A stretch of DNA of 46,832 nt, from the NCBI GenBank assembly GCA_964358925.1, contig CAYHRD010000001.1, forward strand, positions 1 through 46,832, read 5' to 3'. The notes beneath the pieces are model-generated. The model searched no databases, had not been told where the DNA came from, and saw nothing but the letters and a program-made list of their open reading frames with translations. Below, in pieces: positions 27,773 to 44,279 of the stretch. Source of the stretch: an uncultured Sulfurimonas sp. Its GTDB lineage: Bacteria; Campylobacterota; Campylobacteria; Campylobacterales; Sulfurimonadaceae. The position numbers and the translations under genes were made by a program. Positions within the stretch are counted from its first letter, which is position 1. Every line of letters begins with the position of its first letter.

Positions 27773-28145
27773 TATAGCAAAGCTTATTTTAAGGCTTAGT
27801 GTCGGAATAATGATGCTTTTTCACGGATTTCATAAGATGATACATGGGATAGGCGGAGTAAAAGAGCTGACGGTAAGTGCAGGACTCCCTGAGTTTTTAG
27901 CCTATGGAGTTTATGTCGGAGAGGTAGTTGTGCCTATATTTATTCTTCTTGGAACATACGCAAGGGTTGCGTCTTTAGTTTTGGCAGTAAATATGGCTGT
28001 CGCAATTTTTCTAGCGTACGGCAATTCACTCTTTTTGCTCGGCAAACAAGGTGCTCCGCTTTTTGAACTTCCGTTTTTATATCTTGTAATGTCAATTTTG
28101 ATATTTATGCTCGGGAGCGGAAAGTATGCATTCAATAGCAAATAA
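27762..28145 (+). CDS. DoxX-family membrane protein
   Basis: LILRLSVG..FHGFHK, GEVV..LLGTYAR, ELPFLY, GSGKYA. Confidence 0.9.
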   Translation: MTNDIAKLILRLSVGIMMLFHGFHKMIHGIGGVKELTVSAGLPEFLAYGVYVGEVVVPIFILLGTYARVASLVLAVNMAVAIFLAYGNSLFLLGKQGAPLFELPFLYLVMSILIFMLGSGKYAFNSK

Positions 28146-28150
28146 TTCTA

Positions 28151-28708: not shown

Positions 28709-28781
28709 ATATTATCCGGTGCAATTGAATTTGATAGAAATTATAACAAAATTAACGGAAACACAATATTTATAATCTACT

Positions 28782-28830
28782 TGATATTAGTTATCAATTT
28801 AAGAAGATTATAAGATGATACTGATTATCA
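28782..28830. promoter_or_regulatory. Two Fur-like boxes upstream of the porin
   Basis: TGATATTAGTTATCA (28782-28796, 2 mismatches) and TGATACTGATTATCA (28816-28830, 1 mismatch). Confidence 0.7.
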
Positions 28831-28881
28831 TTTCCGAAGTTAAATAACTGATGTTAAAATAAAATTACAAAAAGGGTTAGT

Positions 28882-30105
28882 ATGAATAAATCGCTAAAAA
28901 GCATAGTCTTAATTTCTACTTTGGCATATAGCACAACAACTATGGCAGATGAAGTTGTAAAAGCAGAACAAAATGAGATTTCAACTATTGGGCAGGTTTT
29001 TGAGGAAGGTAAAGTTTCAGGAAACATAAGATCTATGTATGCCGGATACAATATAAAGAAAGAGAATGAGAATAACATCTATGCTACCGCTCTTGGCGGT
29101 TATTTAAAGTATGAGACGGCAGAGTTAAACGGTTTTAGCGCGGCTGCGGCTTTTGCAACATCTCATGATATAGGTTTTGTCACAGGAGATAAAGGCGTAA
29201 AACAGAATGATGAGTTATCGTCGTCTAATGGTAAATATACGGTTTTAAGCGAAGCATATCTCAACTATAAATATGATGATTTTAATTTCCGTGCAGGTCG
29301 TCAAGTTATTGATACGCCGCTGGCAAACAGTGATGATATTAGAATGATTCAAAATACATTTGAAGCATATATAGCAACTTATGAAATTTCTAACTTTAAT
29401 TTTATGGCAGGTAAACTGCAAAAGTGGCAAGGTTATGATGCTGGATTGAATGATGGCTGGGTTAAAGCGGGAGAAGAGGGAACATATTTCGGCGGGGCAG
29501 TGTACTCCGATGATATGATGAAAGTAAACGGTTGGTACTACAACATTACCAAACTTACGAATGCCGCTTATTTTGATGCGACTCTTATGTATGAGATAAG
29601 CAGTGATGTGTCAGGCACCGGAGCCGTTCAATATTTAAATGAGAGTGAAATAAGCCTCAGCGGCACAAAAGCAGATATTTACGGAGCTAAGGCAGAATTG
29701 TCGGCTTACGGATTTACTCTAAGCGCGGCATATAACAAATCTCAAAAGAAGACCGGTAAAGCAAGTTTTAGCGGTTTTGGAGGCGGAGCGCTTTTTACGA
29801 GTATGGATACAATGATTTTGGATGAAATAGCTTCTGACCGCGATGCACGAGCAGCGGTGGGAGGCATAAGTTATGAAATTGACGATTTGACTCTCTCTTA
29901 TGCTTTTGGTGATTTTAAGGGTGAAGCAGACAGTCTTGGGCAAAAAGCTCATATCGTAGAGCAAGATATCTGCATAGCATATAATATTATTGAAGATAAG
30001 TTTAGCGTAAGTGCCGTTTATGCAATACAAGCGGATAGAGAGAACTCGGCAAAAACAGATAATGATTGGAATCGTCTTCAAATCAAAGCATCATATAATT
30101 TTTAA
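28882..30105 (+). CDS. Outer-membrane beta-barrel porin (OprD/Campylobacterota OMP-like)
   Basis: Sec signal peptide, LSEAYLNY, GRQVIDTPLA.SDDIRM, amphipathic strands, C-terminal YNF. Confidence 0.85.
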   Translation: MNKSLKSIVLISTLAYSTTTMADEVVKAEQNEISTIGQVFEEGKVSGNIRSMYAGYNIKKENENNIYATALGGYLKYETAELNGFSAAAAFATSHDIGFVTGDKGVKQNDELSSSNGKYTVLSEAYLNYKYDDFNFRAGRQVIDTPLANSDDIRMIQNTFEAYIATYEISNFNFMAGKLQKWQGYDAGLNDGWVKAGEEGTYFGGAVYSDDMMKVNGWYYNITKLTNAAYFDATLMYEISSDVSGTGAVQYLNESEISLSGTKADIYGAKAELSAYGFTLSAAYNKSQKKTGKASFSGFGGGALFTSMDTMILDEIASDRDARAAVGGISYEIDDLTLSYAFGDFKGEADSLGQKAHIVEQDICIAYNIIEDKFSVSAVYAIQADRENSAKTDNDWNRLQIKASYNF

Positions 30106-30114
30106 TACATATCA

Positions 30115-30160
30115 AGCACCCGATATAAATCCGTATATCTGGTGCTAGACTCTTTTTTTA
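30115..30160 (+). terminator. Probable intrinsic terminator after the porin
   Basis: AGCACCcGATATA / TATATCtGGTGCT stem followed by a T-rich run. Confidence 0.55.
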
Positions 30161-30236
30161 TTCTTCTTTAGTTTTTCACCAATATAATCTTTGCTCAAAA
30201 TCACACTTCTCAAAAATAAATAAAACAAAATATATA

Positions 30237-30303
30237 TGATAATAAATATCAAAATCATAAAAGATTAAGTTTTGCTTTGCTATTATATTGATAATAATTA
30301 TCA
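30237..30303 (+). promoter_or_regulatory. Promoter bracketed by two Fur-like boxes
   Basis: TGATAATAAATATCA (30237-30251), extended -10 TGCTATTAT, perfect TGATAATAATTATCA (30289-30303) next to RBS AAGGAG. Confidence 0.8.
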
Positions 30304-30317
30304 TAAAGGAGTATTCA

Positions 30318-30482
30318 ATGTCTGATGTTGCTATGAAAAGCGAAATAGATAAGCTAATAAAAGAGTCCGGATTGCTAAAACATCCAAAAATGCTTTGTTC
30401 TATTGTTAAAGTATTTAAAATGAGGTATCCGGATATTGATGATGCTAGAGTTTGCAAATTTGCAAATGAAGTTTTAAAATAA
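30318..30482 (+). CDS. Small hypothetical protein (54 aa), weakly similar to the YqeY/GatB C-terminal helices
   Basis: ATG 30318 after AAGGAG; the upstream TTG start in the track lies within the Fur box. Confidence 0.65.
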   Translation: MSDVAMKSEIDKLIKESGLLKHPKMLCSIVKVFKMRYPDIDDARVCKFANEVLK

Positions 30483-30491
30483 GGGGTTTTT

Positions 30492-30821
30492 ATGAGTGTT
30501 CTAGTAATAGGCGGAGATAAAATTGATGCTATAAAATCAATATTGAGTTATTTTGGGGTATCTAGCGTAGTTCATTGGAATGCAAGAAAAAAAGCAAGCA
30601 CATGCAAAAAAATCATACCTATTGATATAGAATGTGTAGTTATGCTGACATCTTTTTTAAATCATAATGCTATGAAACATTTTAAAAGTGAAGCTAAAAA
30701 GCGTGATTTGCCGGTTATATGTTCTAAACACAACAGTAGTTGTTTTTACTATGAATATAAAAAAATTATGGGAAGTGAGTGTCTAAACTGCGATGTTTAT
30801 TCGAGCTGCAATATAAAATAG
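30492..30821 (+). CDS. DUF2325-family protein with Cys-rich tail
   Basis: VLVIGGD..HWNAR..VVMLTSFLNHN..AKKRDLPV pattern; tail CLNCDVYSSC. Confidence 0.8.
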   Translation: MSVLVIGGDKIDAIKSILSYFGVSSVVHWNARKKASTCKKIIPIDIECVVMLTSFLNHNAMKHFKSEAKKRDLPVICSKHNSSCFYYEYKKIMGSECLNCDVYSSCNIK

Positions 30822-30835
30822 ACAAAGGAATAAAA

Positions 30836-31030
30836 ATGGCGCAACAAATTATTAATGAAATAAACGAGTTTGTTACTTTTAGGTTTGATTCTAAAAAAAA
30901 CAGAGTAGTAAATCTAAAAATAAACAGAGATGTAGAGGTGGATGAGTTTTTGTATATTCAGTACATTCTTGACTGCAACAAAGTCAGATACAGTTTTGAG
31001 AAAAACTTTGAAATTCAGATACTTAATTGA
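30836..31030 (+). CDS. Small hypothetical protein (64 aa)
   Basis: ATG 30836 after AAAGGA; fills the gap between the DUF2325 and EAL genes. Confidence 0.65.
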   Translation: MAQQIINEINEFVTFRFDSKKNRVVNLKINRDVEVDEFLYIQYILDCNKVRYSFEKNFEIQILN

Positions 31031-31036
31031 GCAAAA

Positions 31037-31762
31037 ATGTGCAAATTAAATATACCAAATAAATTTTCTATAGATTTACAAAGCGTAAAAGATATTTTAG
31101 TACAAAAAAACTTTCGTACAGAGTATCAACCGATAGTCTCTTTAGCGGATGATAGCATACTGGCGTATGAAGCACTTGCTAGATTTTATCTTGATGGCAA
31201 ATCAATACCGCCTGATGTTGTGTTTGATATTTGTCATAAAGATTTATCTATGTTTTATGAACTTGAAATGAGTGTAAAAGAGCATCAATTTAAAAACAGA
31301 CCAAAAGAGAAAAAACTTTTTATAAATTTTGATCCTCATATTTTGCACTACAAACAAAGAACAAAAGAGATATTTACTCTTATGTCAAAGCAGAGTGATT
31401 TTGTTATAGAACTTGTAGAAAACTCTCACGAGAGCATAAACATAGAAAGATTGATAGAAGTATTTAATAAGTTAAAATATCAATTTGCAGTGGATGATTT
31501 TTTTAAAGAAAACAGCATTATTTCACTTTATCTGCTTAAAGAGTGTCACTATTTAAAACTTGATAAAGATATCTTAAAGCAAATCAAAATAGATAGTGCA
31601 TTTGCAGAGGTGGTAAAAGGGATTTGCAATTACGCTCACAAAATAGGAAAAGAGGTTATCCTTGAGGGCATAGAGACGGAAGATGATTTATACTTAGCTA
31701 AGGAGTGTAGAGTTGATTTTGCACAAGGGTTTCTTTATAGAGATAGATTTATAAATAGGTAG
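31037..31762 (+). CDS. Stand-alone EAL-domain protein (putative c-di-GMP phosphodiesterase)
   Basis: YQPIV, YEALAR, FINF, IELVE, VDDFF, KLDK, EGIET, QGFL. Confidence 0.9.
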   Translation: MCKLNIPNKFSIDLQSVKDILVQKNFRTEYQPIVSLADDSILAYEALARFYLDGKSIPPDVVFDICHKDLSMFYELEMSVKEHQFKNRPKEKKLFINFDPHILHYKQRTKEIFTLMSKQSDFVIELVENSHESINIERLIEVFNKLKYQFAVDDFFKENSIISLYLLKECHYLKLDKDILKQIKIDSAFAEVVKGICNYAHKIGKEVILEGIETEDDLYLAKECRVDFAQGFLYRDRFINR

Positions 31763-34700
31763 TTAAAAAACTTTAACTACTCTATTTAACTCGACAACAG
31801 GTGGGTTCGGCAGCTGCGGGTATGCTTTTTTTACCGCGTCCGTTACCCATTGCGGGTAGATTCTAAAGTTTAGTTTTACGGTAGCCGTTAGCGGATATTT
31901 TAGTGTTTTGCCATTAGGTATTTTGTAAGATTCGACTCGTCTCTCTCCTGCAGCAATTCTAGTATCGCTCAATAATTTTTCATATTTCCAAAAAAGAAGT
32001 CCCGCCGGTTTGCCCTCTTTGTCTGCAAATACTTTCATAAAAGGTCGTGCATCTTCGCCGAGATTTCCGTCATTTTTTAATTTTCCGCTCTCAAATACAA
32101 CTCTATCATCTGCGTCTTTTAAAGTAATATCAAGCCATAACTCTCTAAAATCGGCAACACCTGTCGGCAGATGATGTCCTGCCCCGACATTTGTTACTCC
32201 GACATCAATTTGAGACTCTTTGATATCTACATCAAGCTTTGCAGACATTTTTAAAAGTTGCAGTGTCTGATCTTCATTTTTTTTATTTTTCAGTCCTGAT
32301 AAAAAATGATTTGAGCCGGAAAAATAGTGAACTTTTATATCATCTTTTATTTTACCGCCATCGGTTGAGAGACCTTTTAAGGGAGAGAATTTACCGTTTT
32401 GCAGATTTGTCATATGGCAATCTATACAGCTTTTATGTTTACTTGGATTGTCCGGATTGTTAAATGATGACTTCTCCCACTCTTTAAAAGTAGAGACTAT
32501 CTCGCTTGCGTTACCCGGACTAAACTCGTCGTGACAAGAGGCACAATAAGCTGCATCTTTATATACAGGTTTCATGTAGCTCTCTTTATGAGCTTTTGGT
32601 TTTGAGTTTATAAATTTTTCACTAAGCCACTGTCCTGCTTCTGATTTACTATCTTCAAACGCATATTTTTCTCGCTCGGTTATATTTAAAGTATAAGATG
32701 CGTTTCCGCCCGCGTTTTCAACTTTTGTAATTCTATGGCAGGCAACGCAAGAGACGCCCTCTTCAAGTTTTGAGTTGCCGTGAATTTTCAACTCCTCTAT
32801 TAGGGTTTTTGCTCCTTTTTCAAAAAACTTTTCCATCGTATCCGTAGTTTTTTCTAAACCTGTCGTAACGGCGCTTGGATTGTGGCATCCCATACACCAT
32901 TTTCTAAACTCTTCACCCTCTGTTTTGGCTGCTAGATTTTCTAAAACCATATAGTAAGGGTTTGCTCCTGCTAAGTTTTTATGATTTGAATCAGCCCACT
33001 GGTCAAATATATCAGAGTGGCACGATTTGCACTTTGCGGAGTTTGTCCAATCTTCTGTATGATATTTTTCTACATTATCTTCAAGTTTTATCCAAGTAGA
33101 GAGATAACGCAAATTCTCTTTTGCGGTAACATAACGATGCAGATTTTGCATTTTATCTTTTAGCTCTGCATTCATATTGTCCGGATTTGCTAAAGCTATT
33201 TGTGCTTTTTTATCGGCTCCCATTCCGCCTTGCGTATCTCTGGCAATTCTTACATAATCAGCCAAAGGAGTTTTTGATACAAATCCGTTTAGATTGGAAT
33301 GTCCGATAGTTGCTTTTTTAGACTTATCAATTTGCGTATCTTTAAATAAAAAACGATTTGTAAAATTAAACCCCTCAAAATGACACGAATTGCAACTCAT
33401 CCAAAAATCTCCGCTCATAGGAGTTTGGCTGTTAAAATCCGAATTTGCATTGTTAAACAATCTCTTTCCCTCTCTCATCGCCAAGGGTAAAGGATCTTTT
33501 GTGACCAACTGGGAAAAAGACTCTTTTTGTAGTGTAATCTCTGCAAAAGGGTGACTTCCCCCGCTGTCTAAAAGCGTCATATCAAGAGTAGAAGCGTTTT
33601 GAACATATATGTTATTGTTATCGGGATGCACCAAAATAGCTTGAGGATTTGTGCCGTTTGGGTAATCTCTAAAAATTTGGGTTGCTTTTGCTCCTGTTCC
33701 GCTTACGGTCGCTTTTGTTCTATGTCTTTTTATTTTAGCGTTATCATTGCTTCTCCCTAAATTAAAAACTATGATATCTTCGCTTCCTGACAAGGTTACA
33801 AAAGCTTTTTCTCCATCGTTTGAAAAAGTCAAATCCCAAGGGTTTGATACAATCATGGTCTCATTTTTGTTGTTTAGTATATTTATGGATTTAAAAAGGT
33901 GTTTTCTTTTTTGCTCCTCTTCCCTTTCAGAACCTTTCTCTAGCGAGATAATTGAAACACTCGGGAAAACAGTTGACTGAAATTGAAAAGAGTGGTCAAA
34001 ATTCCATAAAACATGAACAAGCCAAGCTTCGCTGCCGTCAGGTTTAATCTCTATGTCGTCTAAAAGTCTCGGCGCACCTTGCGATACAAACTCGTCGCCA
34101 TCTTGAGTTGAATGCAGAGTTATAGTTTTTAGTTTTTTGAAACTTTTACTATCGTAAATTGTGACAATGCCGAGCATCGTATGCGTTACTAAAAGTCTTC
34201 CGTCATCCGTTAGCGCCATTCCTCGCGGAGTATCAAGAGTTTTAATAGTTTTTATAACACTGAAATTTTTATCGTCAATAACTAAAATTTCTTTATCTTC
34301 ATAAATTGTTACAAAGAAATATCTGTTTTTTTCATCATAAATTATCGCATGGGGTTTGTTATTCGTTTTTATCTCTTTAACAATTTTATTCTCTTTGTTT
34401 AAAAAATAGACTCTGTTTTTCATATAGTCGGTTACGCCGTAAATGGACTCATCGCTGTTAAAAGCTATCCTTCTTATATCGCTTCCCAAAACTTTTTCAA
34501 ATATTTTTTCGCCGCTTTTTGCGTTGATTTTAGAGACACTGCCGCCGTCTAGGTTTGCGCTGTAAATATATTGTTTGTCTTTTGTCAAATAGAGAGCCGA
34601 ACTGCTTGTGCTTGAATATGAGAGTGTCGGAATAAGCAGCGCGAAGAGAACTGCTGAAGCTAAAACCGCTTGTCTTTTAGCTCTATGCTTTCTCTTTTTT

Positions 34701-35110
34701 TGCTCTCTTTTGAGATTAATGTATGGAAAGTTGGTGTGATGCCATAAAAAGAAGAGTAGTAGAAATGAGCCGTATAAATGAAGATTGTATGAGTATATGC
34801 CGATTTCATCACCGCCTCTGTTGCCTATAAAAAACAGATACAACCCGCTAAGAGTTATAAGTAAAAGCACTATTCCTAAAAACATACCGTTCCTGTTATT
34901 TCTTTTTTTACCGATTATATTATTTCTATATTTAAAAACATGAATATTTACAAAAGGTATGATTAAAAAGGCAGAAACGGCGATTGAACCGATAATATGC
35001 AGGGCTTGCAGGACGGAGTAATATCCCCAGTCGATATTAAAAATATCCCATTGAACTATGCCCGTTACAAACATAAGCACGATTGAGAGTTGAATATAAA
35101 TAGATTTCAT
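31763..35110 (-). CDS. Membrane-anchored hexaheme cytochrome c fusion: His-bearing TM domain + YVTN/YncE-like beta-propeller + monoheme domain + c554/c552-like pentaheme domain
   Basis: Five hydrophobic N-terminal segments; propeller repeats (PHAI, PRGMAL, PWDLTF, PQAILV); CNSCH, CKSCH, CMGCH, CVACH, CASCH, CIDCH; C-terminal NVGAGHHLPTG. Confidence 0.88.
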   Translation of the reverse strand: MKSIYIQLSIVLMFVTGIVQWDIFNIDWGYYSVLQALHIIGSIAVSAFLIIPFVNIHVFKYRNNIIGKKRNNRNGMFLGIVLLLITLSGLYLFFIGNRGGDEIGIYSYNLHLYGSFLLLFFLWHHTNFPYINLKREQKKRKHRAKRQAVLASAVLFALLIPTLSYSSTSSSALYLTKDKQYIYSANLDGGSVSKINAKSGEKIFEKVLGSDIRRIAFNSDESIYGVTDYMKNRVYFLNKENKIVKEIKTNNKPHAIIYDEKNRYFFVTIYEDKEILVIDDKNFSVIKTIKTLDTPRGMALTDDGRLLVTHTMLGIVTIYDSKSFKKLKTITLHSTQDGDEFVSQGAPRLLDDIEIKPDGSEAWLVHVLWNFDHSFQFQSTVFPSVSIISLEKGSEREEEQKRKHLFKSINILNNKNETMIVSNPWDLTFSNDGEKAFVTLSGSEDIIVFNLGRSNDNAKIKRHRTKATVSGTGAKATQIFRDYPNGTNPQAILVHPDNNNIYVQNASTLDMTLLDSGGSHPFAEITLQKESFSQLVTKDPLPLAMREGKRLFNNANSDFNSQTPMSGDFWMSCNSCHFEGFNFTNRFLFKDTQIDKSKKATIGHSNLNGFVSKTPLADYVRIARDTQGGMGADKKAQIALANPDNMNAELKDKMQNLHRYVTAKENLRYLSTWIKLEDNVEKYHTEDWTNSAKCKSCHSDIFDQWADSNHKNLAGANPYYMVLENLAAKTEGEEFRKWCMGCHNPSAVTTGLEKTTDTMEKFFEKGAKTLIEELKIHGNSKLEEGVSCVACHRITKVENAGGNASYTLNITEREKYAFEDSKSEAGQWLSEKFINSKPKAHKESYMKPVYKDAAYCASCHDEFSPGNASEIVSTFKEWEKSSFNNPDNPSKHKSCIDCHMTNLQNGKFSPLKGLSTDGGKIKDDIKVHYFSGSNHFLSGLKNKKNEDQTLQLLKMSAKLDVDIKESQIDVGVTNVGAGHHLPTGVADFRELWLDITLKDADDRVVFESGKLKNDGNLGEDARPFMKVFADKEGKPAGLLFWKYEKLLSDTRIAAGERRVESYKIPNGKTLKYPLTATVKLNFRIYPQWVTDAVKKAYPQLPNPPVVELNRVVKVF

Positions 35111-35180
35111 TTTTTAAACCTTGACAAAATAATAATATAAATAAATTATATAAAAAAAATCGTAAGAAATTGCTTAATAA

Positions 35181-35195
35181 TGAAAACCAATATCA
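35181..35195. promoter_or_regulatory. Weak Fur-like box upstream of the 1115-aa cytochrome gene
   Basis: TGAAAACCAATATCA, 3 mismatches; about 30 nt upstream of a minus-strand TATAAT. Confidence 0.45.
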
Positions 35196-35199
35196 AATA

Positions 35200-35227
35200 C
35201 ACTAAAGAGAATAAGTTCTCTTTAGTG
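35200..35227 (-). terminator. Stem-loop terminator after the 674-aa gene
   Basis: Perfect 12-bp inverted repeat CACTAAAGAGAA-TAAG-TTCTCTTTAGTG, 7 nt past the stop. Confidence 0.7.
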
Positions 35228-35234
35228 CGTAATA

Positions 35235-37259
35235 TCAATTGGATAATTTAACTTTTCCCGCCATAGTCGGAGCAGTTCCGAATTTTCCGCCTGCTTTGTT
35301 AATAGGAGGAACATTGTCTTCGTCGTTATTGCTTGTTGTCATTGAAGCTGTTTCATATTCGCCCGAATCCAGTAGCCACTCTGCGAGTTGAGCGCCGTCA
35401 TTTACGGAATTTCCGTTTATAACCAATTGAAACCATCTTGTAAATCTCTCGGTTAAGTTTTTAAGTTCAAGAACCGGCTTTTTCTCAAAACCTGTATTCT
35501 TTAAATTGCTAATAGCACTTCTTAGTCCGCCGCTAACTGCTCCGATTGTATAAGGCGTGTACTCTTTTGACGCATCCACATATGTGCCGATTTTTTTATC
35601 ATACATATTTTTTTCTATAGAAATCATCAACTCTCTTGCTTCTTGTCTGTATTTGTTGTTTTTGGTCGCAAGATATGCCGCCGTGAGTCCTCTAATAACC
35701 GCAAACTGTGTTCCTAAATCCGCTCCCTCTTTTGAACCGTTTGTTACATTGTAAACGGTTGCATATAAGCCGTTTTTCTCTTTTGCTTTGCCGATTAGAA
35801 AATCAGCCTGAGTTTTAATCAGCTCAAGTGCTTTTTTACCTTGCTCAGTCTCTAAAGATTGTGTACTCTTGCTTGAACCGTAACCGACGGGAAGTGCATC
35901 TACTGCTCTTTGAAAAATTCTTAGTGCTTCTATGGAGTATGCCGCATCGTAAATTGTAACTGTATCGCTTTGTTTGCCGTCATATCTATCGATAAAAGTT
36001 CCTGCCTTTTTATCAAAGTGAAGTTTTGAAATATTTTCAAACATTAAATTAGCGATATTTGCAGAAACAGAAAATGCGTCATCGGATTTAATATCATTTT
36101 TTCTGTTGCCGTCGATATTTACTTTCGGAGCGCTTTTAAAAGGTTTTCCGTCAAACACCGCTAAAAATGAAGGGTTTTGACTTTTATTGGAGGTTCTTTG
36201 ATCCGAATATGCATAAAACTCGCTGATTGGCCAAAGCACCTGCCAAGTATCTCTAAGAGAGGAGTGACCCTCTTTAACTTTTAAAGAAGCAATAGATTTG
36301 GTACTGTTTGCAGTTCCTTCTTCCACTGCTACACTGTTTGCAAACCATATAGGCTTGCTTGCATCATAAGAAGGGTCAAACTTCGCACCTAAATTTTTAC
36401 CGTCAAAGCCTAGTTTCTCTTGCATATACAATATACTTTCCCACGCTAATTCCGTTAAAATTACCCCGTTTACGCCGTCCGCACTTGAAACTCCAAGAGC
36501 ATGTTTTCCGTCAGAATCCATAGACGCACTTGTAGCTTCTACCTCTTCATCATTCTCTATTTTATGCATACCGCCAAGAAAATCTTGCGCCCACATTATG
36601 TCTTTTAAAAGTGCTGCGCCGAGTGAAGCAGGATTTAGCGTTTTATCCATTTCGGACTCAACCCAAGAGAGAGTTTTATAATCTCTCAAATAAGCAGGTA
36701 TCGAAGTTTTTACTTTGCTCTCTTTACCGTGTTTAAATACCACAACCTCATCGTTATTTACAATTGTCATATCAATTTTTTGTGCAAATTCAGGGATTCC
36801 TGAGGTGTATGGCAGTGCTGTCGGATGCATATTTAACGGTATGATTTCCGGGTCATTGCCGGTTGCTTTTGCAAACTCTATAAATCTTTTTGCCAAAGAA
36901 GCCATATCCCCGCCTCTTGAAGCGTTTAAAAGACCGTTTACCAGATGCGGTCCCATTTTTGACTGATAATTTAAAGCATACATCGCTTCTTCAGAGTATT
37001 CATAGCTCTCAATTCCGGCTGTATAATCAAACTCCGTCGGTTTATTAATCGTATTTGGATTTAGCGTGTCTAAATCCAGCCCAAGTGACTCTGCGAGAGG
37101 TTCTCCGGATAATTCAAACTCGGTATAAGCAAACATTGCGCCTGCCGTATAAAACCTTTTATCCAGAACCTCCGCTTTTGTATTAGAAAATGGCTTTGAA
37201 GCATATAATGATGTTATAGCCAAAGAAGCAATCAGTGACAATTTTACTATCTTATTCAT
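35235..37259 (-). CDS. Secreted hypothetical protein (674 aa) with Glu/Tyr-rich N-terminal motifs and alpha/alpha-toroid-like C-terminal repeats
   Basis: Signal peptide MNKIVKLSLIASLAITSLYA; RBS AAGGA; YTEFELSGE, IESYEYSEE; RGLTAAYLATKNNKYRQEA; no Cys. Confidence 0.85.
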   Translation of the reverse strand: MNKIVKLSLIASLAITSLYASKPFSNTKAEVLDKRFYTAGAMFAYTEFELSGEPLAESLGLDLDTLNPNTINKPTEFDYTAGIESYEYSEEAMYALNYQSKMGPHLVNGLLNASRGGDMASLAKRFIEFAKATGNDPEIIPLNMHPTALPYTSGIPEFAQKIDMTIVNNDEVVVFKHGKESKVKTSIPAYLRDYKTLSWVESEMDKTLNPASLGAALLKDIMWAQDFLGGMHKIENDEEVEATSASMDSDGKHALGVSSADGVNGVILTELAWESILYMQEKLGFDGKNLGAKFDPSYDASKPIWFANSVAVEEGTANSTKSIASLKVKEGHSSLRDTWQVLWPISEFYAYSDQRTSNKSQNPSFLAVFDGKPFKSAPKVNIDGNRKNDIKSDDAFSVSANIANLMFENISKLHFDKKAGTFIDRYDGKQSDTVTIYDAAYSIEALRIFQRAVDALPVGYGSSKSTQSLETEQGKKALELIKTQADFLIGKAKEKNGLYATVYNVTNGSKEGADLGTQFAVIRGLTAAYLATKNNKYRQEARELMISIEKNMYDKKIGTYVDASKEYTPYTIGAVSGGLRSAISNLKNTGFEKKPVLELKNLTERFTRWFQLVINGNSVNDGAQLAEWLLDSGEYETASMTTSNNDEDNVPPINKAGGKFGTAPTMAGKVKLSN

Positions 37260-37279
37260 CTAAATTCCTTATTTTGATT

Positions 37280-37345
37280 TGAAAACGATTATCAAAATTA
37301 TAAATAAAGAAACTTAATGTATGTTTAAAATGATAATTATTATCA
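37280..37345 (-). promoter_or_regulatory. Promoter bracketed by two Fur-like boxes
   Basis: Perfect TGATAATTATTATCA (37331-37345), minus-strand TATAAT, TGAAAACGATTATCA (37280-37294) near the RBS. Confidence 0.8.
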
Positions 37346-37360
37346 GAATAATTTAGTTTT

Positions 37361-37508
37361 GAGATTGCCGCGCTGCGCTCGCAATGACGCAAGAGAGAGA
37401 TTGCCGCGTCGTTTTACTCCTCGCAGTGACGGTTACTTATCATCGAACACATTCTTTCGTCATTGTGAACATTCTTCCGTCATTGCGAACGAAGTGAAGC
37501 AATCTATG
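37361..37508. repeat. REP-like palindromic repeat cluster, family A
   Basis: GAGATTGCCGCGCTGCGCTCGCAATGAC, GAGATTGCCGCGTC..CTCGCAGTGAC, partial CGTCATTGTGAAC, inverted CGTCATTGCGAACGAAGTGAAGCAATCT. Confidence 0.88.
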
Positions 37509-37533
37509 TTTAATCAGAGTATTCTATTGAAAT

Positions 37534-38754
37534 TTAGTTTTTCAGCAAATACAGTGTTTTTTCGCCTACAAAACGCCCTTTATAAATCTCATAAGCTGCT
37601 TCTTTTGGTTTTTGAGCCGTGATGATGTAAACCGTGTTTTTTTCATTAAGATACTTTGCGCTGTCACGGTAATAGTTGTCTACGACTCTGTAATTATAAA
37701 CTGTTCTTAGTATTTCGATACTTCTGTTTGCTATGATTATTCTATCCGTTAGGACTATGTTTTGAGCTATCTGTTCAATGGGAGAAATTTTTTCATCATA
37801 TTTTAAAATATGAAATATATTAAAAGAGAGTATCAAAAATAGTAAGATATTTGCTTTTTTTAAATATGTTGCAAGAAAAATATTGGCTATAAAAACTAAA
37901 GGTATTATATGTCTTAGGCTATCCGGATTTTGGGCAAAGAGTATCCAGCAAAAGTAGAAAACAAAAATAAGATACAGAAGCGGGAACTTTTTTTCTTGTT
38001 TAAAAGGTAGAAACAGCAAAAATATATAGGGTGTATTTATAAATGAAAAGATATTGTCAAACCAAGAAAGTTCGCTGTTTTGCCCTCGTCCCCATAGTGA
38101 AAAATGCCCCTCTATAAACCTCACACCCTCATAAAAATAGAGCATACCGTTGTTTATAAATATAAATAGCAAAAATAAAGTGGAGGTTAAAAAAAACCAA
38201 ACTAAGATGGGTTTTAGGGAATCTTTTTTAAACAGGTAAAGGTATATAAATCCCGCAATAAAAAAAATAAAATAGGATGGTCTTGAAAAAAATGATACGG
38301 CAAAAATGATACCGCTTAGTCTCTGTTTTTTTAATTCAAGAAAATATAGTCCTAAAAAGAAAAAGAGCAGACCGACACTTTCGCTTAACATGCACAATGA
38401 GAGGTTCATTAGATAAGGTGTAGTAATAGAAAGTGCGAAGACTATAAAAGCCGTCTTTTCATCTTGAAGTTTTTTTGTATATAAAAAAAGAACAAAGGGT
38501 ATCAGTATCGCACTAAGAGCAGTGAGAATGAAGAGAGACTGTTTGGCATCATCTATAAAAAAATTGATGATTTTGCCAAAAATAACAACAGAAGGGTACC
38601 CTGGAAAATGTGGAGAAAAATCTATAACGCTAAAGTTTTTTATGCCCTCTGCCAAAAAAAGCGAATCGTCATTAAAATATGAAGCGGGATAGGTAAAAAT
38701 AAAAAGGGCATAAACAAAAGTACTTATACCGACAACCGCTTTGTAGCCGCTCAT
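37534..38754 (-). CDS. Polytopic membrane protein, GT-C-fold glycosyltransferase-like
   Basis: About 10-11 TM segments; first loop NDDS followed by PHFPGYP (HPPGY-like); LSES; SRP; RHIIPL. Confidence 0.7.
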   Translation of the reverse strand: MSGYKAVVGISTFVYALFIFTYPASYFNDDSLFLAEGIKNFSVIDFSPHFPGYPSVVIFGKIINFFIDDAKQSLFILTALSAILIPFVLFLYTKKLQDEKTAFIVFALSITTPYLMNLSLCMLSESVGLLFFFLGLYFLELKKQRLSGIIFAVSFFSRPSYFIFFIAGFIYLYLFKKDSLKPILVWFFLTSTLFLLFIFINNGMLYFYEGVRFIEGHFSLWGRGQNSELSWFDNIFSFINTPYIFLLFLPFKQEKKFPLLYLIFVFYFCWILFAQNPDSLRHIIPLVFIANIFLATYLKKANILLFLILSFNIFHILKYDEKISPIEQIAQNIVLTDRIIIANRSIEILRTVYNYRVVDNYYRDSAKYLNEKNTVYIITAQKPKEAAYEIYKGRFVGEKTLYLLKN

Positions 38755-39309
38755 TTAGATTGATTTTAAAATATTGACTATAACTTGTTGATTTTTTTTG
38801 TACTCTTGCTCATCGGCAGGTTTCGCTCCCACTCCAAAAAGACCGGGATTTCCGATAGAATCCGCACATTTTTTTATGGCTGCCTTAAGCGTTTCGTTTT
38901 TCTCTTTATCCAAACTAACCGATAAAATTTTGTAAAACTTATCAACCTTTGCTAACATCACTTTTGCCACATTAAACTCTTTTATATTTTCTAAACCGCC
39001 TTGTATTCTTCTTTGGATTTCACAAGCGATGGAAATATCAAGCCATCTGACAATCTGCTTTTTGTCATGTTTTAAAATTGATGTTTTTAAACCCTCAAAG
39101 AGCAGAGTGTTAAACTCGTCATTTAAGTATCGATAGGTCTGCTCATACTCTTTAAATACCGTTTCCGCCATTTTAAAATCATCACCGTTTACGGCTCTTG
39201 TAATTGCCTCTTTTGCATCTATTGTCGGCTCTTTGCCTGCTGCTGCATAAGAGTAGGCATTTAGAGTAGAAGCTATAAAAGCAGCAATAAGTAGTAGTAA
39301 AAATTTCAT
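38755..39309 (-). CDS. Secreted alpha-helical hypothetical protein (184 aa)
   Basis: Signal peptide ending LNA; mature N-terminus YSYAAAGKEP; NPGLFGVG; its TAA abuts the next ATG. Confidence 0.8.
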   Translation of the reverse strand: MKFLLLLIAAFIASTLNAYSYAAAGKEPTIDAKEAITRAVNGDDFKMAETVFKEYEQTYRYLNDEFNTLLFEGLKTSILKHDKKQIVRWLDISIACEIQRRIQGGLENIKEFNVAKVMLAKVDKFYKILSVSLDKEKNETLKAAIKKCADSIGNPGLFGVGAKPADEQEYKKNQQVIVNILKSI

Positions 39310-39379
39310 GTTTTTTCCTTTTTTTATTTTATTCGTAATTATATTTTTCTTATTAAGAATTTAAGTGGAGTAATAATTA

Positions 39380-40066
39380 TTAAAACCAGAATCTCACTCC
39401 AGTTACTGCATATGCTTCATCTAATGATGAAATATCATTTGTATTTCCAAAATTTTTACTCCATTGGATTCCTATATAAGGTGCAAATTCTCTTGTAAAT
39501 TCATATCTCAATCTGGCATCTAAGGTGATATTTGAAAAGCCACTTCCAATAGCCATTTCTTCATTGTTTTTTGTATAAGCAGATATTTGAGCACTTGGAC
39601 TTAATATAAGTTTTTGTGTCAACAATGCATCATATTCTGCTTCAATTCTTAACCCAATATTTCCATCCTCTCCTATTAAAAGTACGGTTCTTGTTTCAAA
39701 GAAATATTTAGCTAAGCCTTGCAATCCTATAATACCCCATGTTTGATGAGCTTTTTCATTTTTATCATAATCAATACCAACTTGTACATCCCAAAAAGGA
39801 AAAACTGCTCTTGAATAAACTAATTGATTTTCGCTTTGAGCAGATTTATTTTTAACTTTTTCCCCTTCCGAATAAATATAAATCTTATTTATATCGTATC
39901 CGGCATATCCATATACATTCCATGCAGTTGCTTTTTCATCGCTAAATTGATATTCAAGTTTATCAACAACTAAAGAACTTCTAAAAACATCGCCTCCATC
40001 CTCCATTGAAAAACTATTTGTTACAAAAAAGCCTACTAATGATAATGCTAATACTATTTTTTTCAT
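39380..40066 (-). CDS. copB: Copper resistance protein B (outer membrane)
   Basis: VDKLEYQ, PFWDVQVG, GLQGLA.YFFE, YDALLTQKLILSP, RLRYEFTREFAPYIG, GVRFWF. Confidence 0.92.
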   Translation of the reverse strand: MKKIVLALSLVGFFVTNSFSMEDGGDVFRSSLVVDKLEYQFSDEKATAWNVYGYAGYDINKIYIYSEGEKVKNKSAQSENQLVYSRAVFPFWDVQVGIDYDKNEKAHQTWGIIGLQGLAKYFFETRTVLLIGEDGNIGLRIEAEYDALLTQKLILSPSAQISAYTKNNEEMAIGSGFSNITLDARLRYEFTREFAPYIGIQWSKNFGNTNDISSLDEAYAVTGVRFWF

Positions 40067-40078
40067 AATAAAACTCCT

Positions 40079-41842
40079 TTAAGATACTATTACTTTTCTA
40101 AACATATCTGTCATATGATAAAGCAAGTGACAATGATAAGCCCAAGAACCTTTTGCATCCACATTTACCCTAAAACTTATTTTTGAACCCGGTTGCACAA
40201 TGATTGTGTGTTTTCTTGGTAAATAATTGTCATCACCTGTTTCTAAATCACTCCACATACCGTGTAAATGCATAGGGTGATTCATCATAGTGTCATTAAT
40301 ATATGTTATTCTTAATCTCTCTCCATATTTGAATTCTAAAGGTTTGGCATCCTTGTAAGCTATACCATTTATAGACCACATATATCTTTGCATATTTCCT
40401 GTAAGTCTTAAAATTATCTCTCTATCAGGATATTTATCATGTGTGGTAGGAGTTAATGATTTCAAATCTGCATATGTTAAAACTTTTCTACCATTATTTC
40501 TAAGTCCTACACCGGGGTCATTAAGTCTATATTGTGGATCCATAGCTACTGTATCTATTTGAACACCTGCTGCTTCTTCAAGTCTATTAATTGGTATTTC
40601 TTTTTTTTGATTATTAATTCCTGACATATCATGTCCCATTTTTGAATGTTCTATAGGCGCATTTATTGATTCTGATTTGCTCATCGCAGACATATCATGT
40701 TCTGAACTACTCATATCACTTGTTCCACCCATACCCATATCAGCATGTGTTAAAATCGGAAAAGGATCCATTTGTGGAGTTTGTGCAATTACTTTTTCAT
40801 CAAAAGTTAATGCTCCAAGCGCATAGCCACTTCTATCAATACTTTGAGCAAAAATAGCATAAGCTTTATTTGCTTCCGGCTCTACTATTACATCATAAGT
40901 TTCAGCGACACCCATCCTAAACTCATCAACACTTACGGGTTGAATATTATTTCCATCAGCTGCAATTACTGTTATCTTAAGACCAGGAATTCTTACATCA
41001 AAAAATGTCATAGCAGCACTATTTATGAATCTTAATCTAATTTTTTCTCCATTTTTAAATAGTGCTTTAAAGCCTGTAGCCGGATTTTCTCCATTCATTA
41101 AGTATGTATATGTATATCCTGATACATCTGAAATATCCCTATCTGTCATTTTCATTTCATTCCACATTTTTCTTTCATTAAATGCTTCAAAAAAACCTTT
41201 TTCTTTTACTTCATCAAAGAAATCTCCAACAGTTCGTTGTTTAAAATTATAATAAGAAGAAGAGAGTTTTATTTTTCTGTAAACTGAAGATGGTTTTTCA
41301 TCTGACCAATCTGATAATGAAATTACATATTCTCTATCGTATTCATATGGGTCTTTTACTTTTGGCTCGATTATAATTGCGCCAAAAATACCGGTCTGTT
41401 CTTGAAAACCAGAGTGTGAATGATACCAATAAGTTCCACTTTGAACTATTGGAAAGCTATATGTAAATGTTTCTCCAGGTTTAATACCACTAAAACTAAT
41501 TCCAGGAACGCCATCCATAGCAGCAGGTAAAATAATTCCATGCCAATGAATAGATGTATCTTCATTAAGATTATTAGTTACATTTATCGTAACAGTATCT
41601 CCTTCTTTCCATCTAAGGATTGGACCACTTAGCATTCCATTTATTGTTGTAGCGATACTTGGATTACCTGTAATATTTACATAAGTATTTTCAATACTTA
41701 AATTAAATATATTTCCACTTAACTCATTAGTTTTAATACGAGTTGATATGTTAGAATTCGAACTTAGGCTTGACGGCGTAGAAGCAATTATACTTGTTGC
41801 CAAAATACCTTTTACAAATGTTCTTCTATCTATATTATTCAT
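40079..41842 (-). CDS. copA: Tat-exported copper-resistance multicopper oxidase (CopA/PcoA family)
   Basis: Tat signal DRRTFVKG; HWHG, WYHSH, HPMHLHG, HCHLLYH; Met/His-rich linker. Confidence 0.95.
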   Translation of the reverse strand: MNNIDRRTFVKGILATSIIASTPSSLSSNSNISTRIKTNELSGNIFNLSIENTYVNITGNPSIATTINGMLSGPILRWKEGDTVTINVTNNLNEDTSIHWHGIILPAAMDGVPGISFSGIKPGETFTYSFPIVQSGTYWYHSHSGFQEQTGIFGAIIIEPKVKDPYEYDREYVISLSDWSDEKPSSVYRKIKLSSSYYNFKQRTVGDFFDEVKEKGFFEAFNERKMWNEMKMTDRDISDVSGYTYTYLMNGENPATGFKALFKNGEKIRLRFINSAAMTFFDVRIPGLKITVIAADGNNIQPVSVDEFRMGVAETYDVIVEPEANKAYAIFAQSIDRSGYALGALTFDEKVIAQTPQMDPFPILTHADMGMGGTSDMSSSEHDMSAMSKSESINAPIEHSKMGHDMSGINNQKKEIPINRLEEAAGVQIDTVAMDPQYRLNDPGVGLRNNGRKVLTYADLKSLTPTTHDKYPDREIILRLTGNMQRYMWSINGIAYKDAKPLEFKYGERLRITYINDTMMNHPMHLHGMWSDLETGDDNYLPRKHTIIVQPGSKISFRVNVDAKGSWAYHCHLLYHMTDMFRKVIVS

Positions 41843-41910
41843 AAGAAAACTCCTTTTTTATTCATATTCAATATAATACTATTTATATGAGGAATGAATG
41901 TATAGTTTTT

Positions 41911-43305
41911 TCAAGCGATGCTTTTTGTCTCTATAACTGTTTTTTCATTTCTATGATTGTAAATTTTCTCTTTTGAAATAGACGAATCTCCGAGAATCTT
42001 TTGAGCCGCCATCAGCCCCGTCTCCATAGCGGTATCAAGAAATATGTATCTAAATGTTCCTTGTCTTCCCGCCATCACAAGATTGTTAAATCTATTTAGG
42101 TATTTGATAGTGTCATCCCTTTTTATATCGTAATTTATATCCATTAAGGTATAAGCATGCTGGGCACTAAAAGAGAAGCTTTCGATTATCTTATCTTCAA
42201 TATCAAAACCTAGTTTTTTTAAATCACATATTACGATTTTTAAAAGCTCCTCTTTATCCATATTCCAAATTTTGTCATTTTTGTTGCAGGGAATCTCAAG
42301 CATTATGGAACTTTTGCCTTTTGGAGACATAAACCCCGACCTTCTTTTTGGTTCTTGTATCCTTGTGGGTAAAAGTTCATAATCACTTACATACTGCCAA
42401 GTGTGAGGTGAAAAATCTTCAATGTCTAAACCGATACATAAAAATCTAAGGCTTCTGAATTTCAAACCGCTCTCATATCCCATTTTTAAAGACATTTCGT
42501 TAAGCGGCATGGTTGAAATGATGTTGTCGGCTTTAAAACTGTTATTTTGCGTATGAACGGCTGTAATGGAGTTGTTCGTATATTCAAAATTCGTTACTTC
42601 TGAATCAAGAAATATTTTCCCGCCCAAAGCCTCAAACCTTTGTGCCATCTTCTTTGGAAGTTCTCCAAATCCGTATTTGGGATATCTATAGCTTTTGGCA
42701 TAAGTTCTCACCGTTTTTTTATTTTTAAACAGCAGCTTTTTTGCAACATCTTTTAAATCAAGCAGTGAAATCCTCTGTCCTGCCCAGTCGGCGCTCAAGT
42801 CTTTTGGTTCTATTCCCCATAGTTTTTTTGTATATGGAGCAAAAAAATTCTTATACAGAGTTGCTCCAAACCTTGATGTTATCCATGCCTCAAAACTTTT
42901 ATCGTCAGGCTTTACTAATTTTATTAAAATTTTCAAGGTATCGAAAAGTGCGCCAAAAAGAAGTTTTAAAGGAGCTGTTTTTAGAAGATTTTTCAAATTT
43001 AGCGGATACTCGTAAACTCTGTTTTGGTGAAGTATGACGGAGCTTCTCTGGGCAATTAAAAGATTATCGCCTAAAATCTCTTCCACAAAAGAAAGAAGAG
43101 CCTCATTGTTTGTAATAAATCTGTGTCCGCCGTAGTCAAATCTATATTTGTCATCTCCTATCTTTAAAACCTCGGTTCTGCATTGCCCGCCGACACTTGA
43201 CTCTTTTTCTAAAAGTATTACACTCTTTTTCTCTTCTAAAAGTTTTATACCAGCCATCAGCCCGGCAACTCCGCCTCCGATAATCAAAACATCGCTATTT
43301 TGCAT
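41911..43305 (-). CDS. FAD-dependent oxidoreductase, UDP-galactopyranose mutase/HemY-like family (464 aa)
   Basis: GGGVAG Rossmann motif, GGQCRT, FDYGGHRF, YTKKLWG, YPKYGFG, GRQGTFRY; ATG 43305 overlaps the FTR1 stop. Confidence 0.85.
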   Translation of the reverse strand: MQNSDVLIIGGGVAGLMAGIKLLEEKKSVILLEKESSVGGQCRTEVLKIGDDKYRFDYGGHRFITNNEALLSFVEEILGDNLLIAQRSSVILHQNRVYEYPLNLKNLLKTAPLKLLFGALFDTLKILIKLVKPDDKSFEAWITSRFGATLYKNFFAPYTKKLWGIEPKDLSADWAGQRISLLDLKDVAKKLLFKNKKTVRTYAKSYRYPKYGFGELPKKMAQRFEALGGKIFLDSEVTNFEYTNNSITAVHTQNNSFKADNIISTMPLNEMSLKMGYESGLKFRSLRFLCIGLDIEDFSPHTWQYVSDYELLPTRIQEPKRRSGFMSPKGKSSIMLEIPCNKNDKIWNMDKEELLKIVICDLKKLGFDIEDKIIESFSFSAQHAYTLMDINYDIKRDDTIKYLNRFNNLVMAGRQGTFRYIFLDTAMETGLMAAQKILGDSSISKEKIYNHRNEKTVIETKSIA

Positions 43306-44110
43306 TTGAGTATGCTCTCTTCCATAATATAAGCGCGCTTGACATATAGAGAATCCAAGAGAGCAGATGTAGCAGCGAAGGAGAGGAGTTGTACCCAAAG
43401 AGCGCTCTTAAAAAAGTTCCGATTAAACCTCTGTCATCCAAGATATGCGATATATCGTAAACGCTTGACATAAGGACAGGAGCCAATCCGCTTGCCTGCA
43501 TCATAGAGACGGCACTTCCGAAAAGCCCACCCGCTATTATCAAAATCAGAAGCGAGGTGTATTTGAAAAATGCTTTTATAGGGATGTTTTTTACGCCCCT
43601 CATAAGAGCATAAACCAAAATTACAGATACGATAATCCCCAAAGAAGCACCGATAAGTCCCTCTTCTGCGCTTATATTTTCTCCTATGCTAAGTGAGGAG
43701 AAAAAGAGTACGCTCTCAAATCCTTCTCTTAAAACCGCCAAAAATGCTAAAAACACCATACCGGCTATATTGCCCGCCGTTACTAAACGCTCCAGATTTT
43801 CTTCTATCTCACCTTTTATCTGTTTTGATTGGTTCGACATCCAAAAAACCATATAAGATAAAACAACCGTTGCAAAAAGCAGAATAAAAATCATTAAATA
43901 GTGCTGATAAAGTTCATTTTCTATTCCGTAAATCACGACTTGAAAGATATATGCAATGATGAGCGAAACTGCAATCCCGATAATTACGCCCAAATAGATA
44001 TATTTGTCATATTGTTTTACTTGAAGCCGACTTAAATAAGAGAGAATAATCCCTACTATTAAAAAAGCCTCTAACCCTTCTCTCAGCGTTATTAAAAAAC
44101 TTGCTAACAT
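43295..44110 (-). CDS. FTR1/EfeU-family high-affinity iron permease
   Basis: Seven TM segments with twin REGLE and REGFE motifs; ALFGY. Confidence 0.95.
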   Translation of the reverse strand: MLASFLITLREGLEAFLIVGIILSYLSRLQVKQYDKYIYLGVIIGIAVSLIIAYIFQVVIYGIENELYQHYLMIFILLFATVVLSYMVFWMSNQSKQIKGEIEENLERLVTAGNIAGMVFLAFLAVLREGFESVLFFSSLSIGENISAEEGLIGASLGIIVSVILVYALMRGVKNIPIKAFFKYTSLLILIIAGGLFGSAVSMMQASGLAPVLMSSVYDISHILDDRGLIGTFLRALFGYNSSPSLLHLLSWILYMSSALILWKRAYSNAK

Positions 44111-44123
44111 TCTATTCCTTGCA

Positions 44124-44150
44124 GATAATTATAATAATCGTTATCATTAT
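44124..44150. promoter_or_regulatory. Fur-like box in the divergent FTR1/feoA intergenic region
   Basis: TAATAATCGTTATCA (44132-44146, 2 mismatches) within GATAAT-like hexamers, overlapping a minus-strand TATAAT. Confidence 0.7.
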
Positions 44151-44279
44151 AGTTTATTAAAAATAAAAAGTTTCTTAAATTTGCATACGAATTGAAAAAT
44201 TATTAAATAAATCTATGCCAAATTAAACAATAATCTAAATTTCTCTATAATTAGGTACTTGAAAATAAGCAGAGAAAAT

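Follow-up and report, generated by a model that had tools for sequence, protein, structure and literature searches.

An iron-associated gene module joining a GT-C-fold membrane protein to a mutase-like flavoprotein in Sulfurimonas and other bacteria: a candidate periplasmic glycosylation line

Iron permeases of the Ftr1 type belong to several described systems, EfeUOB, FtrABCD, p19-Ftr1 of Campylobacter and Fet3-Ftr1 of yeast, and like them the locus reported here combines an Ftr1 permease, in which REGxE occurs twice, with Fur boxes, a redox partner and a small exported protein. Its other likenesses are to glycosylation. Three-component systems, of the GtrA/GtrB/GT-C kind or, in Citrobacter youngae, made of a PRP synthase, a MATE flippase and GT136, require a synthase, a flippase and a GT-C (PMC11127046); a GT-C with an acidic periplasmic first loop and an auxiliary sugar-converting enzyme are shared with our locus. 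Uridine diphosphate (UDP)-galactopyranose mutases (UGMs) form a flavin N5-sugar adduct with breakage of the UDP bond (PMC7662398), and Campylobacter jejuni uses a dehydrogenase, a decarboxylase, an epimerase and a flavin adenine dinucleotide (FAD) mutase to reach UDP-arabinofuranose (PMC10615251). Here we analyse a gene module carried by a stretch of 46,832 nucleotides of an uncultured Sulfurimonas sp. (GenBank assembly GCA_964358925.1, contig CAYHRD010000001.1, positions 1 to 46,832; the window in what follows), which encodes an FTR1-family permease, a UGM-like flavoprotein of 464 aa, an exported protein of 184 aa, a GT-C-fold membrane protein of 406 aa, an exported barrel protein of 674 aa and a multihaem cytochrome of 1115 aa. 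The parts of this module have known folds, but the whole is neither a three-component glycosylation system, nor a classical UGM locus, nor one of the described Ftr1 systems. A full-text literature search, with most subscription papers and all supplements outside its coverage, found no description of it; the genes may already figure in supplementary tables of iron-response data.

We propose, with a probability of about 0.5, that the module is a dedicated periplasmic glycosylation line which puts a sugar on its own exported proteins under iron limitation. Reduced FAD would first attack C1 of a UDP-sugar as in UGM, which the conserved UDP- and flavin-side residues suggest; UDP-galacturonate would be the best candidate substrate, made through the UDP-glucose dehydrogenase and the UDP-glucuronate 4-epimerase of the host. 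The sugar would then pass to polyprenyl phosphate and across the membrane by means of host enzymes or of the flavoprotein itself, since no GT2 or GtrA is encoded alongside. The GT-C, whose fold is computed and whose activity is predicted, would use Asp30 to transfer this sugar to an exported partner, the barrel or the 184-aa protein. Finally the modified partners and the cytochrome might constitute a periplasmic metal-binding and redox unit, usually feeding FTR1 in this lineage. We infer the UDP-sugar chemistry, the uronate substrate, the transfer by the GT-C, the protein acceptor and the role in iron capture from folds, residues, linkage and Fur-like sites. If true, protein or envelope glycosylation would be tied directly to iron acquisition; the analysis also offers a starting point for three families so far without annotation: NF005547, the 674-aa barrel and the 184-aa protein.

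An earlier sequence-only reading of this DNA had pointed to the GT-C-like and UGM-like genes as a glycosylation pair within an iron-uptake cluster, with an exported protein, a lipid or a metallophore as acceptor. It is partly supported, and the three outcomes it held against itself, a membrane protein modelled as a transporter, a true protoporphyrinogen oxidase and a lack of conserved linkage to FTR1, did not occur. The module (31763-44110) is nevertheless wider than the span then delimited (37534-43305), which does hold the pair but also an unrelated, later-inserted copA/copB block (39380-41842); and neither the 674-aa protein as a third fold of sugar-enzyme type nor the 1115-aa cytochrome as a module member had been recognised.

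Conservation of the gene arrangement is a first argument. A scan of GTDB genomes confirmed 130 relatives of the GT-C, and 80 loci were kept, in which genes were counted by profiles built from these same loci, short contigs included. The hosts are Sulfurimonas, Arcobacteraceae, Aeromonas, Vibrionaceae, Oceanospirillales, Pseudovibrio, Terasakiella and others. The 184-aa gene accompanies 77 of these 80 GT-C genes, and the corresponding counts are 73 for the flavoprotein, 69 for the cytochrome, 62 for FTR1 and 50 for the 674-aa gene; flavoprotein, 184-aa and GT-C genes are contiguous in 71 of the 73 loci holding all three. A second scan, of metagenomes and anchored on the flavoprotein, kept 80 loci (71 with the Phe motif discussed below); the 36 Phe-type loci with at least 2.5 kb downstream contain the GT-C (31), a cytochrome of the same family (19), the 184-aa gene (17), FTR1 (15) and the barrel (13). 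The conserved linkage of the pair is thus borne out in both collections. In the window itself, as had been read, the TAA of the 184-aa gene abuts the ATG of the GT-C gene (TAAATG, 38757-38752); the ATG of the flavoprotein gene is found 11 nt within the FTR1 gene, whose stop is at 43295. In genomes with a lone GT-C the remaining genes form an operon elsewhere in three cases out of four (G711 being the exception), and the 674-aa gene was found elsewhere in 5/5 genomes lacking it at the locus. Few genomes carry the module: close orthologues of the two genes of the pair occur in 3 of 301 Campylobacterota genomes, the same three for each gene, 12 of 151 genomes of the family of G301 have the flavoprotein, and in a sample of 401 genomes of a class the flavoprotein clade occurs only in the centre genome.

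More distant layouts indicate which genes are central. One without FTR1 associates the flavoprotein, a distant barrel, the GT-C and a propeller-cytochrome (L188, L189, L193, L213, L227), a flavoprotein of this branch clustering with a Polyangiaceae protein. That of Candidatus Brocadia, again without FTR1, consists of a gene which we take to be porin-like (it has no Pfam match), the flavoprotein, the GT-C, exported beta-sandwich proteins, a dihaem cytochrome and a heavy-metal ATPase; a related module thereby occurs in anammox bacteria, organisms with a heavy requirement for haem iron. Since the flavoprotein and the GT-C persist in these deeper layouts without FTR1, the pair is the core and FTR1 is specific to one branch. 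FTR1 as an obligate member was rejected, given its absence from some loci and from the Brocadia and Polyangiaceae versions. Exported proteins stand beside the GT-C in every layout. On a Terasakiella chromosome (L028, L029) two copies of an FTR1-less module are each followed by bacterioferritin. In two other loci (L192:11431-13269, L203:7258-9261) Phe-clade flavoproteins precede, in place of the usual GT-C, a multi-pass membrane protein with tetratricopeptide repeats, which did not align with the window GT-C and may resemble TMTC transferases.

The GT-C fold of the 406-aa protein, already suspected from its sequence, is firmly assigned, and a transferase activity is predicted from it. Its model (mean predicted local distance difference test, pLDDT, 90.4) was not that of a transporter: every one of the 23 Foldseek matches with E <= 0.001 is a GT-C enzyme, and in a wide search over 48,161 chains the top 20 rows are all GT-C-fold proteins, the next unrelated row having Z 6.7. 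Pmt4 is the best match (Z 25.3, root-mean-square deviation (rmsd) 3.2, 319 aligned residues), and ALG12 (Z 23.2) and ArnT (Z 21.4) are also found. The fold is common to the whole chain in Pmt1/Pmt4, ALG12, ArnT and glycosylphosphatidylinositol (GPI) mannosyltransferase I (Z 18-25), but the 406-aa protein is only 9-16% identical to them and has invariant motifs of its own. In 67 homologues with 27% mean column identity the residues D30, P48, F50-Y53, R158-P159, F213, G216-H217, W221, Q275-N276, R281-H282 and R394 do not vary, and D29 is kept in at least 90%. The motifs NDDS at 28 (D29, D30) and PHFPGYP at 48, on which the GT-C suggestion had been built, are therefore present and not due to chance. 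D30 stands at the start of the first-loop helix (29-40) of the model and presumably corresponds to the catalytic Asp of ALG6/PMT-type GT-Cs. Even distant versions retain the acidic first loop and the PxxPGY, GH..W and QN...RH motifs. The window GT-C shares 85% identity with its counterpart in a Sulfurimonas metagenome-assembled genome; in the nearest Sulfurimonas relative (L008) the GT-C and cytochrome genes are each in two pieces, by sequencing error or decay.

The flavoprotein is UGM-like in that its nearest solved structures, the fungal ones at the head of its PDB matches, are UGMs (E 2e-28), but it is not a classical UGM: it reaches 68.2 bits for a TIGR00031 cut-off of 303.75, whereas it passes NCBIfam PRK07208.1-3 (NF005547) with 472 bits for a cut-off of 380 (380-717 bits among clade members). 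The motifs DYGGHRF (57), YTKKLWG (158) and GRQGTFRY (413) are where they had been noted. With the UGMs of Aspergillus fumigatus (3UTE) and Klebsiella pneumoniae (2BI7) it shares the FAD fold, the histidine loop and the uridine- and phosphate-binding residues. Counting along the PDB-match alignments, H61, R87, Y100, F154, Y158 and W163 fall on His63, Arg91, Tyr104, Phe158, Tyr162 and Trp167 of A. fumigatus, and R178, W303, Y305, Y385, R414 and Y420 on Arg182, Trp315, Tyr317, Tyr419, Arg447 and Tyr453; R315 presumably matches Arg327, by its spacing, and we assume for all these residues the functional roles usually given to them in UGM. H61, R87, Y100, Y158, W163, R178, W303, Y305, R315, Y385, R414 and Y420 are kept in 77/77 aligned flavoproteins; the alignment omits three rows, long or broken, and most of the near-identical metagenome sequences.

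The departure from UGM concerns the sugar side. The position of A. fumigatus Asn457 and K. pneumoniae Asp351 (of the two alignments used, the second is weak alone) is Phe422 in the window protein, and over the 77 rows it is Phe in 53 and Asn in 24. In the Phe rows the UGM Asn207 becomes Ala203 (51/53) and extra arginines appear, R322 in 53/53 (Trp in 23/24 Asn rows), R321 in 48/53 and R200 in 52/53, together with Y202 in 50/53. This change from Asn to Phe with new arginines suggests a sugar other than galactose. Phe-type proteins form one clade (FastTree support 96; in a quick tree the window branch has an SH-aLRT of 98). PRK07208-family proteins with YxNxDH (NF005548 and others) belong to the same superfamily as NF005547, and an amphipathic helix (102-133), common to the clade and these relatives, does not separate them. 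The Asn-type relatives reside in glycan loci, with GT2, GtrA, GalE and decarboxylase-like genes; the NF005547 clade differs by F422, R322 and the loss of the GT2 linkage. UGM is linked to Leloir transferases and the module flavoprotein to a GT-C instead. That the active-site change of the clade coincides with the loss of GT2 linkage poses the question of how the lipid-linked donor is synthesised. One speculative answer, which we regard as doubtful, is that the Phe422 clade would be a flavin-dependent transglycosylase in which UGM chemistry (the N5-sugar adduct) serves to load undecaprenyl phosphate with the sugar, perhaps a furanose form of galacturonate, in replacement of GT2; flavoprotein and GT-C would then be a two-enzyme system by which Proteobacteria, Campylobacterota, myxobacteria and anammox bacteria mature a multihaem complex for iron acquisition in the periplasm. 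In genomes of family f2 (L150-L152) an Asn-type PRK07208 flavoprotein accompanies GalE, a decarboxylase-like epimerase and membrane proteins; this set may represent an arabinofuranose pathway.

As to the substrate, a gene resembling UDP-glucuronate-4-epimerase, as its PDB matches suggest, lies in or beside the module in 6/80 loci of two phyla, twice with a UDP-glucose dehydrogenase gene, and is present in 47/50 module genomes. This co-occurrence of dehydrogenase and epimerase genes is what module genomes share with the C. jejuni mutase pathway (PMC10615251). Within one family the epimerase-like gene is in 12/12 module genomes and in 75/139 others (Fisher p 0.0013, overstated by kinship).

Among the exported partners are the two candidate acceptors, the 184-aa and barrel proteins. 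In 77/77 loci the 184-aa protein has Y-[S/T]-Y after a signal-like stretch, plus a C-terminal GxPGxFGxG; family and structure searches gave no match for it, and a fused longer form was not found, which is weak evidence. The 674-aa protein, judged to be exported from its N-terminal helix and not by a predictor, is modelled (pLDDT 87.8) as an (alpha/alpha)6 barrel with tied matches across families, GH105 (Z 20.9, rmsd 2.9, 300 aligned), mannose isomerase (20.8) and cellobiose epimerase (20.5), and no PDB sequence-profile match. A second barrel copy of G303 lies on a 251-kb contig among insertion sequences. The C-terminal part of the 1115-aa protein matches cytochrome c552 (5ZE8, E 2.7e-13), and in many Gammaproteobacteria its membrane domain is a separate gene. 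The window genome (G000, C22) also encodes a 601-aa paralogue of this cytochrome (L155:5267-7072) with the four-helix domain and five CxxCH, without propeller, adjoining a MauG/CCP-family dihaem peroxidase gene.

The iron context proposed for the pair is supported by FTR1 and by Fur-like sites, defined as at least 14 of 19 bases of an E. coli Fur consensus. Such a site precedes the first module gene, whichever gene this is, in 43/65 loci, against 10/167 other genes and 37/1300 shuffled sequences. Neighbouring genes include FeoB and bacterioferritin (4 loci each), other ferritins, Fur, a TonB receptor and catechol-siderophore genes. The linkage to FTR1 is conserved, at the frequency given above, but FTR1 does not anchor the module: it is missing from 10/70 loci with enough flank and, of four module genomes tested without it at the locus, no FTR1-family gene was found in three (G304, G308, G715), and G719 has a distant one elsewhere. 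The EfeU score of the window FTR1 is 204 bits for a cut-off of 255. In contrast to the Ftr1 systems the module has no conserved cupredoxin, DyP peroxidase, p19 or polyferredoxin; no cupredoxin, imelysin, DyP or p19 partner is among the recurrent families of the 80 loci, imelysin genes being found in L020 only. In the module FTR1 is instead associated with a six-haem cytochrome, a barrel and sugar enzymes, and it can disappear with the rest persisting, unlike in Ftr1 systems. At lower window coordinates (27762-31762), several strong Fur-like sites (28817, 30284, 30290) accompany genes for DoxX, an Opr-type porin, DUF2325 and EAL proteins and extend the iron-regulated region, and a divergent feoB is at 44531. 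Promoter and terminator scans remained at chance level.

Several observations weigh against the glycosylation line. First, the scarcity of donor genes, which the sequence-only reading had remarked in this DNA, is general: the GT2 profile is found in 0/80 GTDB loci, 0/8 unlinked regions and 1/80 metagenome loci, while 11/15 loci of Asn-type relatives are positive (7 supplied seeds; 4 of the 8 non-seed loci are positive), and the GtrA profile is found in 0/80 GTDB and 0/80 metagenome loci. At the 80 GTDB loci there is neither another recurrent synthase-like family, a UbiA-type PRP synthase not having been searched by profile, nor, besides FTR1 and the GT-C, a steady multi-pass family that could supply an EamA or MATE flippase. 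Three-component systems thus differ from the module by their synthase and flippase, and the module by its Fur-like sites and by having a barrel, a cytochrome and FTR1 as partners, not a polysaccharide locus. Host enzymes are not steady either, with a GtrB-like synthase in only 28/50 module genomes (one query, 50 of the 80 loci covered) and GtrA in 5/11. The epimerase is common outside module genomes, which being related are not independent, and it is not universal within them (none in G740, a 33% relative only in G716, a split gene in G727). On the acceptor side, neither the 184-aa nor the barrel protein has a conserved N-glycosylation sequon, the conserved Ser/Thr of the former is Gly in a distant homologue (L224), and the 184-aa protein is missing from the deeper layouts. 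Terpene cyclases also match the barrel (Z 17.7), and the non-catalytic PIG-U is among the GT-C fold matches (Z 13-14). Lastly G711 has a GT-C without flavoprotein in the genome, and L214 a module without GT-C nearby. Apart from the module, the window genome (G000, C15) has a separate set with GT2, WbqC, a DegT aminotransferase, EamA and a 521-aa membrane protein (L156:788-5575), which looks like a complete amino-sugar three-component system.

The acceptor might not be a protein. Under iron limitation the same enzymes could glycosylate a lipid or an envelope glycan (lipid A, lipopolysaccharide core, a glycolipid) as ArnT does, the barrel trimming or epimerising the product; the rhizobial Rgt galacturonosyl transferases offer a lipid-glycosylating parallel. 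We consider this possible, if rather unlikely. The sole PDB sequence-profile match of the GT-C is a glycolipid enzyme, GPI mannosyltransferase I (E 0.02), ArnT, ALG12 and ALG9 are close folds, the hint of galacturonate is compatible with lipid A chemistry, and in 15/18 Aeromonas loci a second GT-C-like gene (PTPS_related / YfhO matches, no PDB sequence match; e.g. L027:11309-12979) directly follows the module GT-C. However, a lipid target leaves unexplained the strict co-inheritance with one cytochrome and one barrel family and the swap to other exported proteins in Brocadia, and known lipid-modifying GT-Cs accompany a GT2 and a flippase, absent at module loci.

It is unlikely, in our opinion, that the folds were repurposed, the GT-C being a non-catalytic scaffold like PIG-U, the flavoprotein a flavin reductase or electron donor serving the cytochrome for ferric reduction, and the 184-aa and barrel proteins iron binders. 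The lack of donor genes at module loci and the loss of the sugar-side Asn of UGM agree with it, the His-bearing four-helix membrane domain of the cytochrome could carry electrons, and the Tyr-x-Tyr and acidic clusters could be metal ligands. Against this, neither the Asp in the first loop of the GT-C nor any UDP-binding residue of the flavoprotein varies over several phyla, sugar-nucleotide enzymes have been recruited repeatedly, and flavoprotein and GT-C persist together without FTR1, the barrel or the usual cytochrome.

Very unlikely would be a module that makes or processes a small glycosylated periplasmic metallophore or cofactor, to which the GT-C adds a sugar, which the barrel forms or cleaves and which the cytochrome oxidises or reduces. 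The barrel does have a conserved, enzyme-like set of polar pocket residues (E47, E53, E84, E87, H232, D353, D370, H414, E627, D646 and D648, kept in 7/7 distant homologues), propeller-plus-haem proteins, of which NirN and hydrazine synthase match the 1115-aa protein, comprise cofactor-maturing enzymes, and the Aeromonas barrel gene is relocated beside catechol-siderophore synthesis genes (L137, L139, L138). On the other hand, a synthetase, an exporter and an outer-membrane receptor are not steady members of the 80 loci, and the structurally characterised GT-Cs have proteins, lipids or polymers as acceptors. Finally, a protoporphyrinogen oxidase supplying haem for the cytochrome, with the GT-C as a passenger, fits the iron and haem context and the name that some sources give to relatives, but it was rejected as hardly credible: the flavoprotein has 48.3 bits for a TIGR00562 cut-off of 97.85, matches a protoporphyrinogen oxidase structure at E 3e-10 only, keeps the UGM-type residues and is linked to the GT-C in 31/36 loci.

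Table 1. Coordinates of the module genes, Fur-like sites and inserted elements in the window.
Feature	Coordinates	Strand	Details
FTR1-family iron permease, 271 aa	43295..44110	-	Pfam FTR1 164 bits; REGLE at 10, REGFE at 128; frequent but optional member
UGM-like FAD protein, 464 aa	41911..43305	-	ATG at 43305; NCBIfam PRK07208.1-3 (NF005547); founder of Phe422 clade; without signal peptide
Inserted copA (40079-41842) and copB (39380-40066) block	39322..41904	-	TIGR01480 818 bits, Pfam CopB; not part of the module
Exported helical protein, 184 aa	38755..39309	-	matches no known family; mature protein starting with Y-[S/T]-Y; GxPGxFGxG motif at the C-terminus
GT-C-fold membrane protein, 406 aa, invariant first-loop D30	37534..38754	-	Pfam PMT_2 27.3 bits; model pLDDT 90
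Multicopy inverted-repeat element, ~180 bp	37350..37530	.	flanked by a direct repeat of 11 nt; not a module component
Exported (alpha/alpha)6-barrel protein, 674 aa, GH105 / AGE-epimerase / GH76-like fold	35235..37259	-	model pLDDT 88; acidic residues deeply conserved
Multihaem cytochrome, 1115 aa: membrane domain of four helices with conserved His, YVTN-type beta-propeller, six CxxCH haem motifs	31763..35110	-	
Overlapping Fur-box-like sites before FTR1	44127..44151	-	15/19 and 15/19 to an E. coli consensus
Fur-box-like sites before 674-aa gene	37326..37350	-	16/19, 15/19
Fur-box-like site before cytochrome gene	35176..35194	-	15/19; downstream of terminator-like hairpin at 35199-35228

Two elements of the window do not belong to the module. 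The copA/copB genes are a later insertion, clean, between the flavoprotein and 184-aa genes, with no evident terminal repeats or transposase. Their G+C content at third codon positions is 0.15-0.17, versus 0.30-0.39 in module genes; they are absent between these two genes in relatives; and a contig of run X3 joins 39321 to 41905 (the empty site, in a close relative), contigs of run X1 bridging both junctions of the window form. Because they came late, copA and copB were rejected as the ferroxidase partner of FTR1. At the same point, after the flavoprotein, L020 (3568-9335) carries an inserted cluster of imelysin, di-haem oxidoreductase, imelysin, sterol-desaturase-like and CCP genes. The element at 37350-37530 has inverted arms of 33 nt and 73 partial matches (high-scoring segment pairs) on 54 contigs of the genome; with an empty site in run X4 and a depth spike, it looks like a miniature inverted-repeat transposable element (MITE) or an element of the repetitive extragenic palindromic (REP) type.

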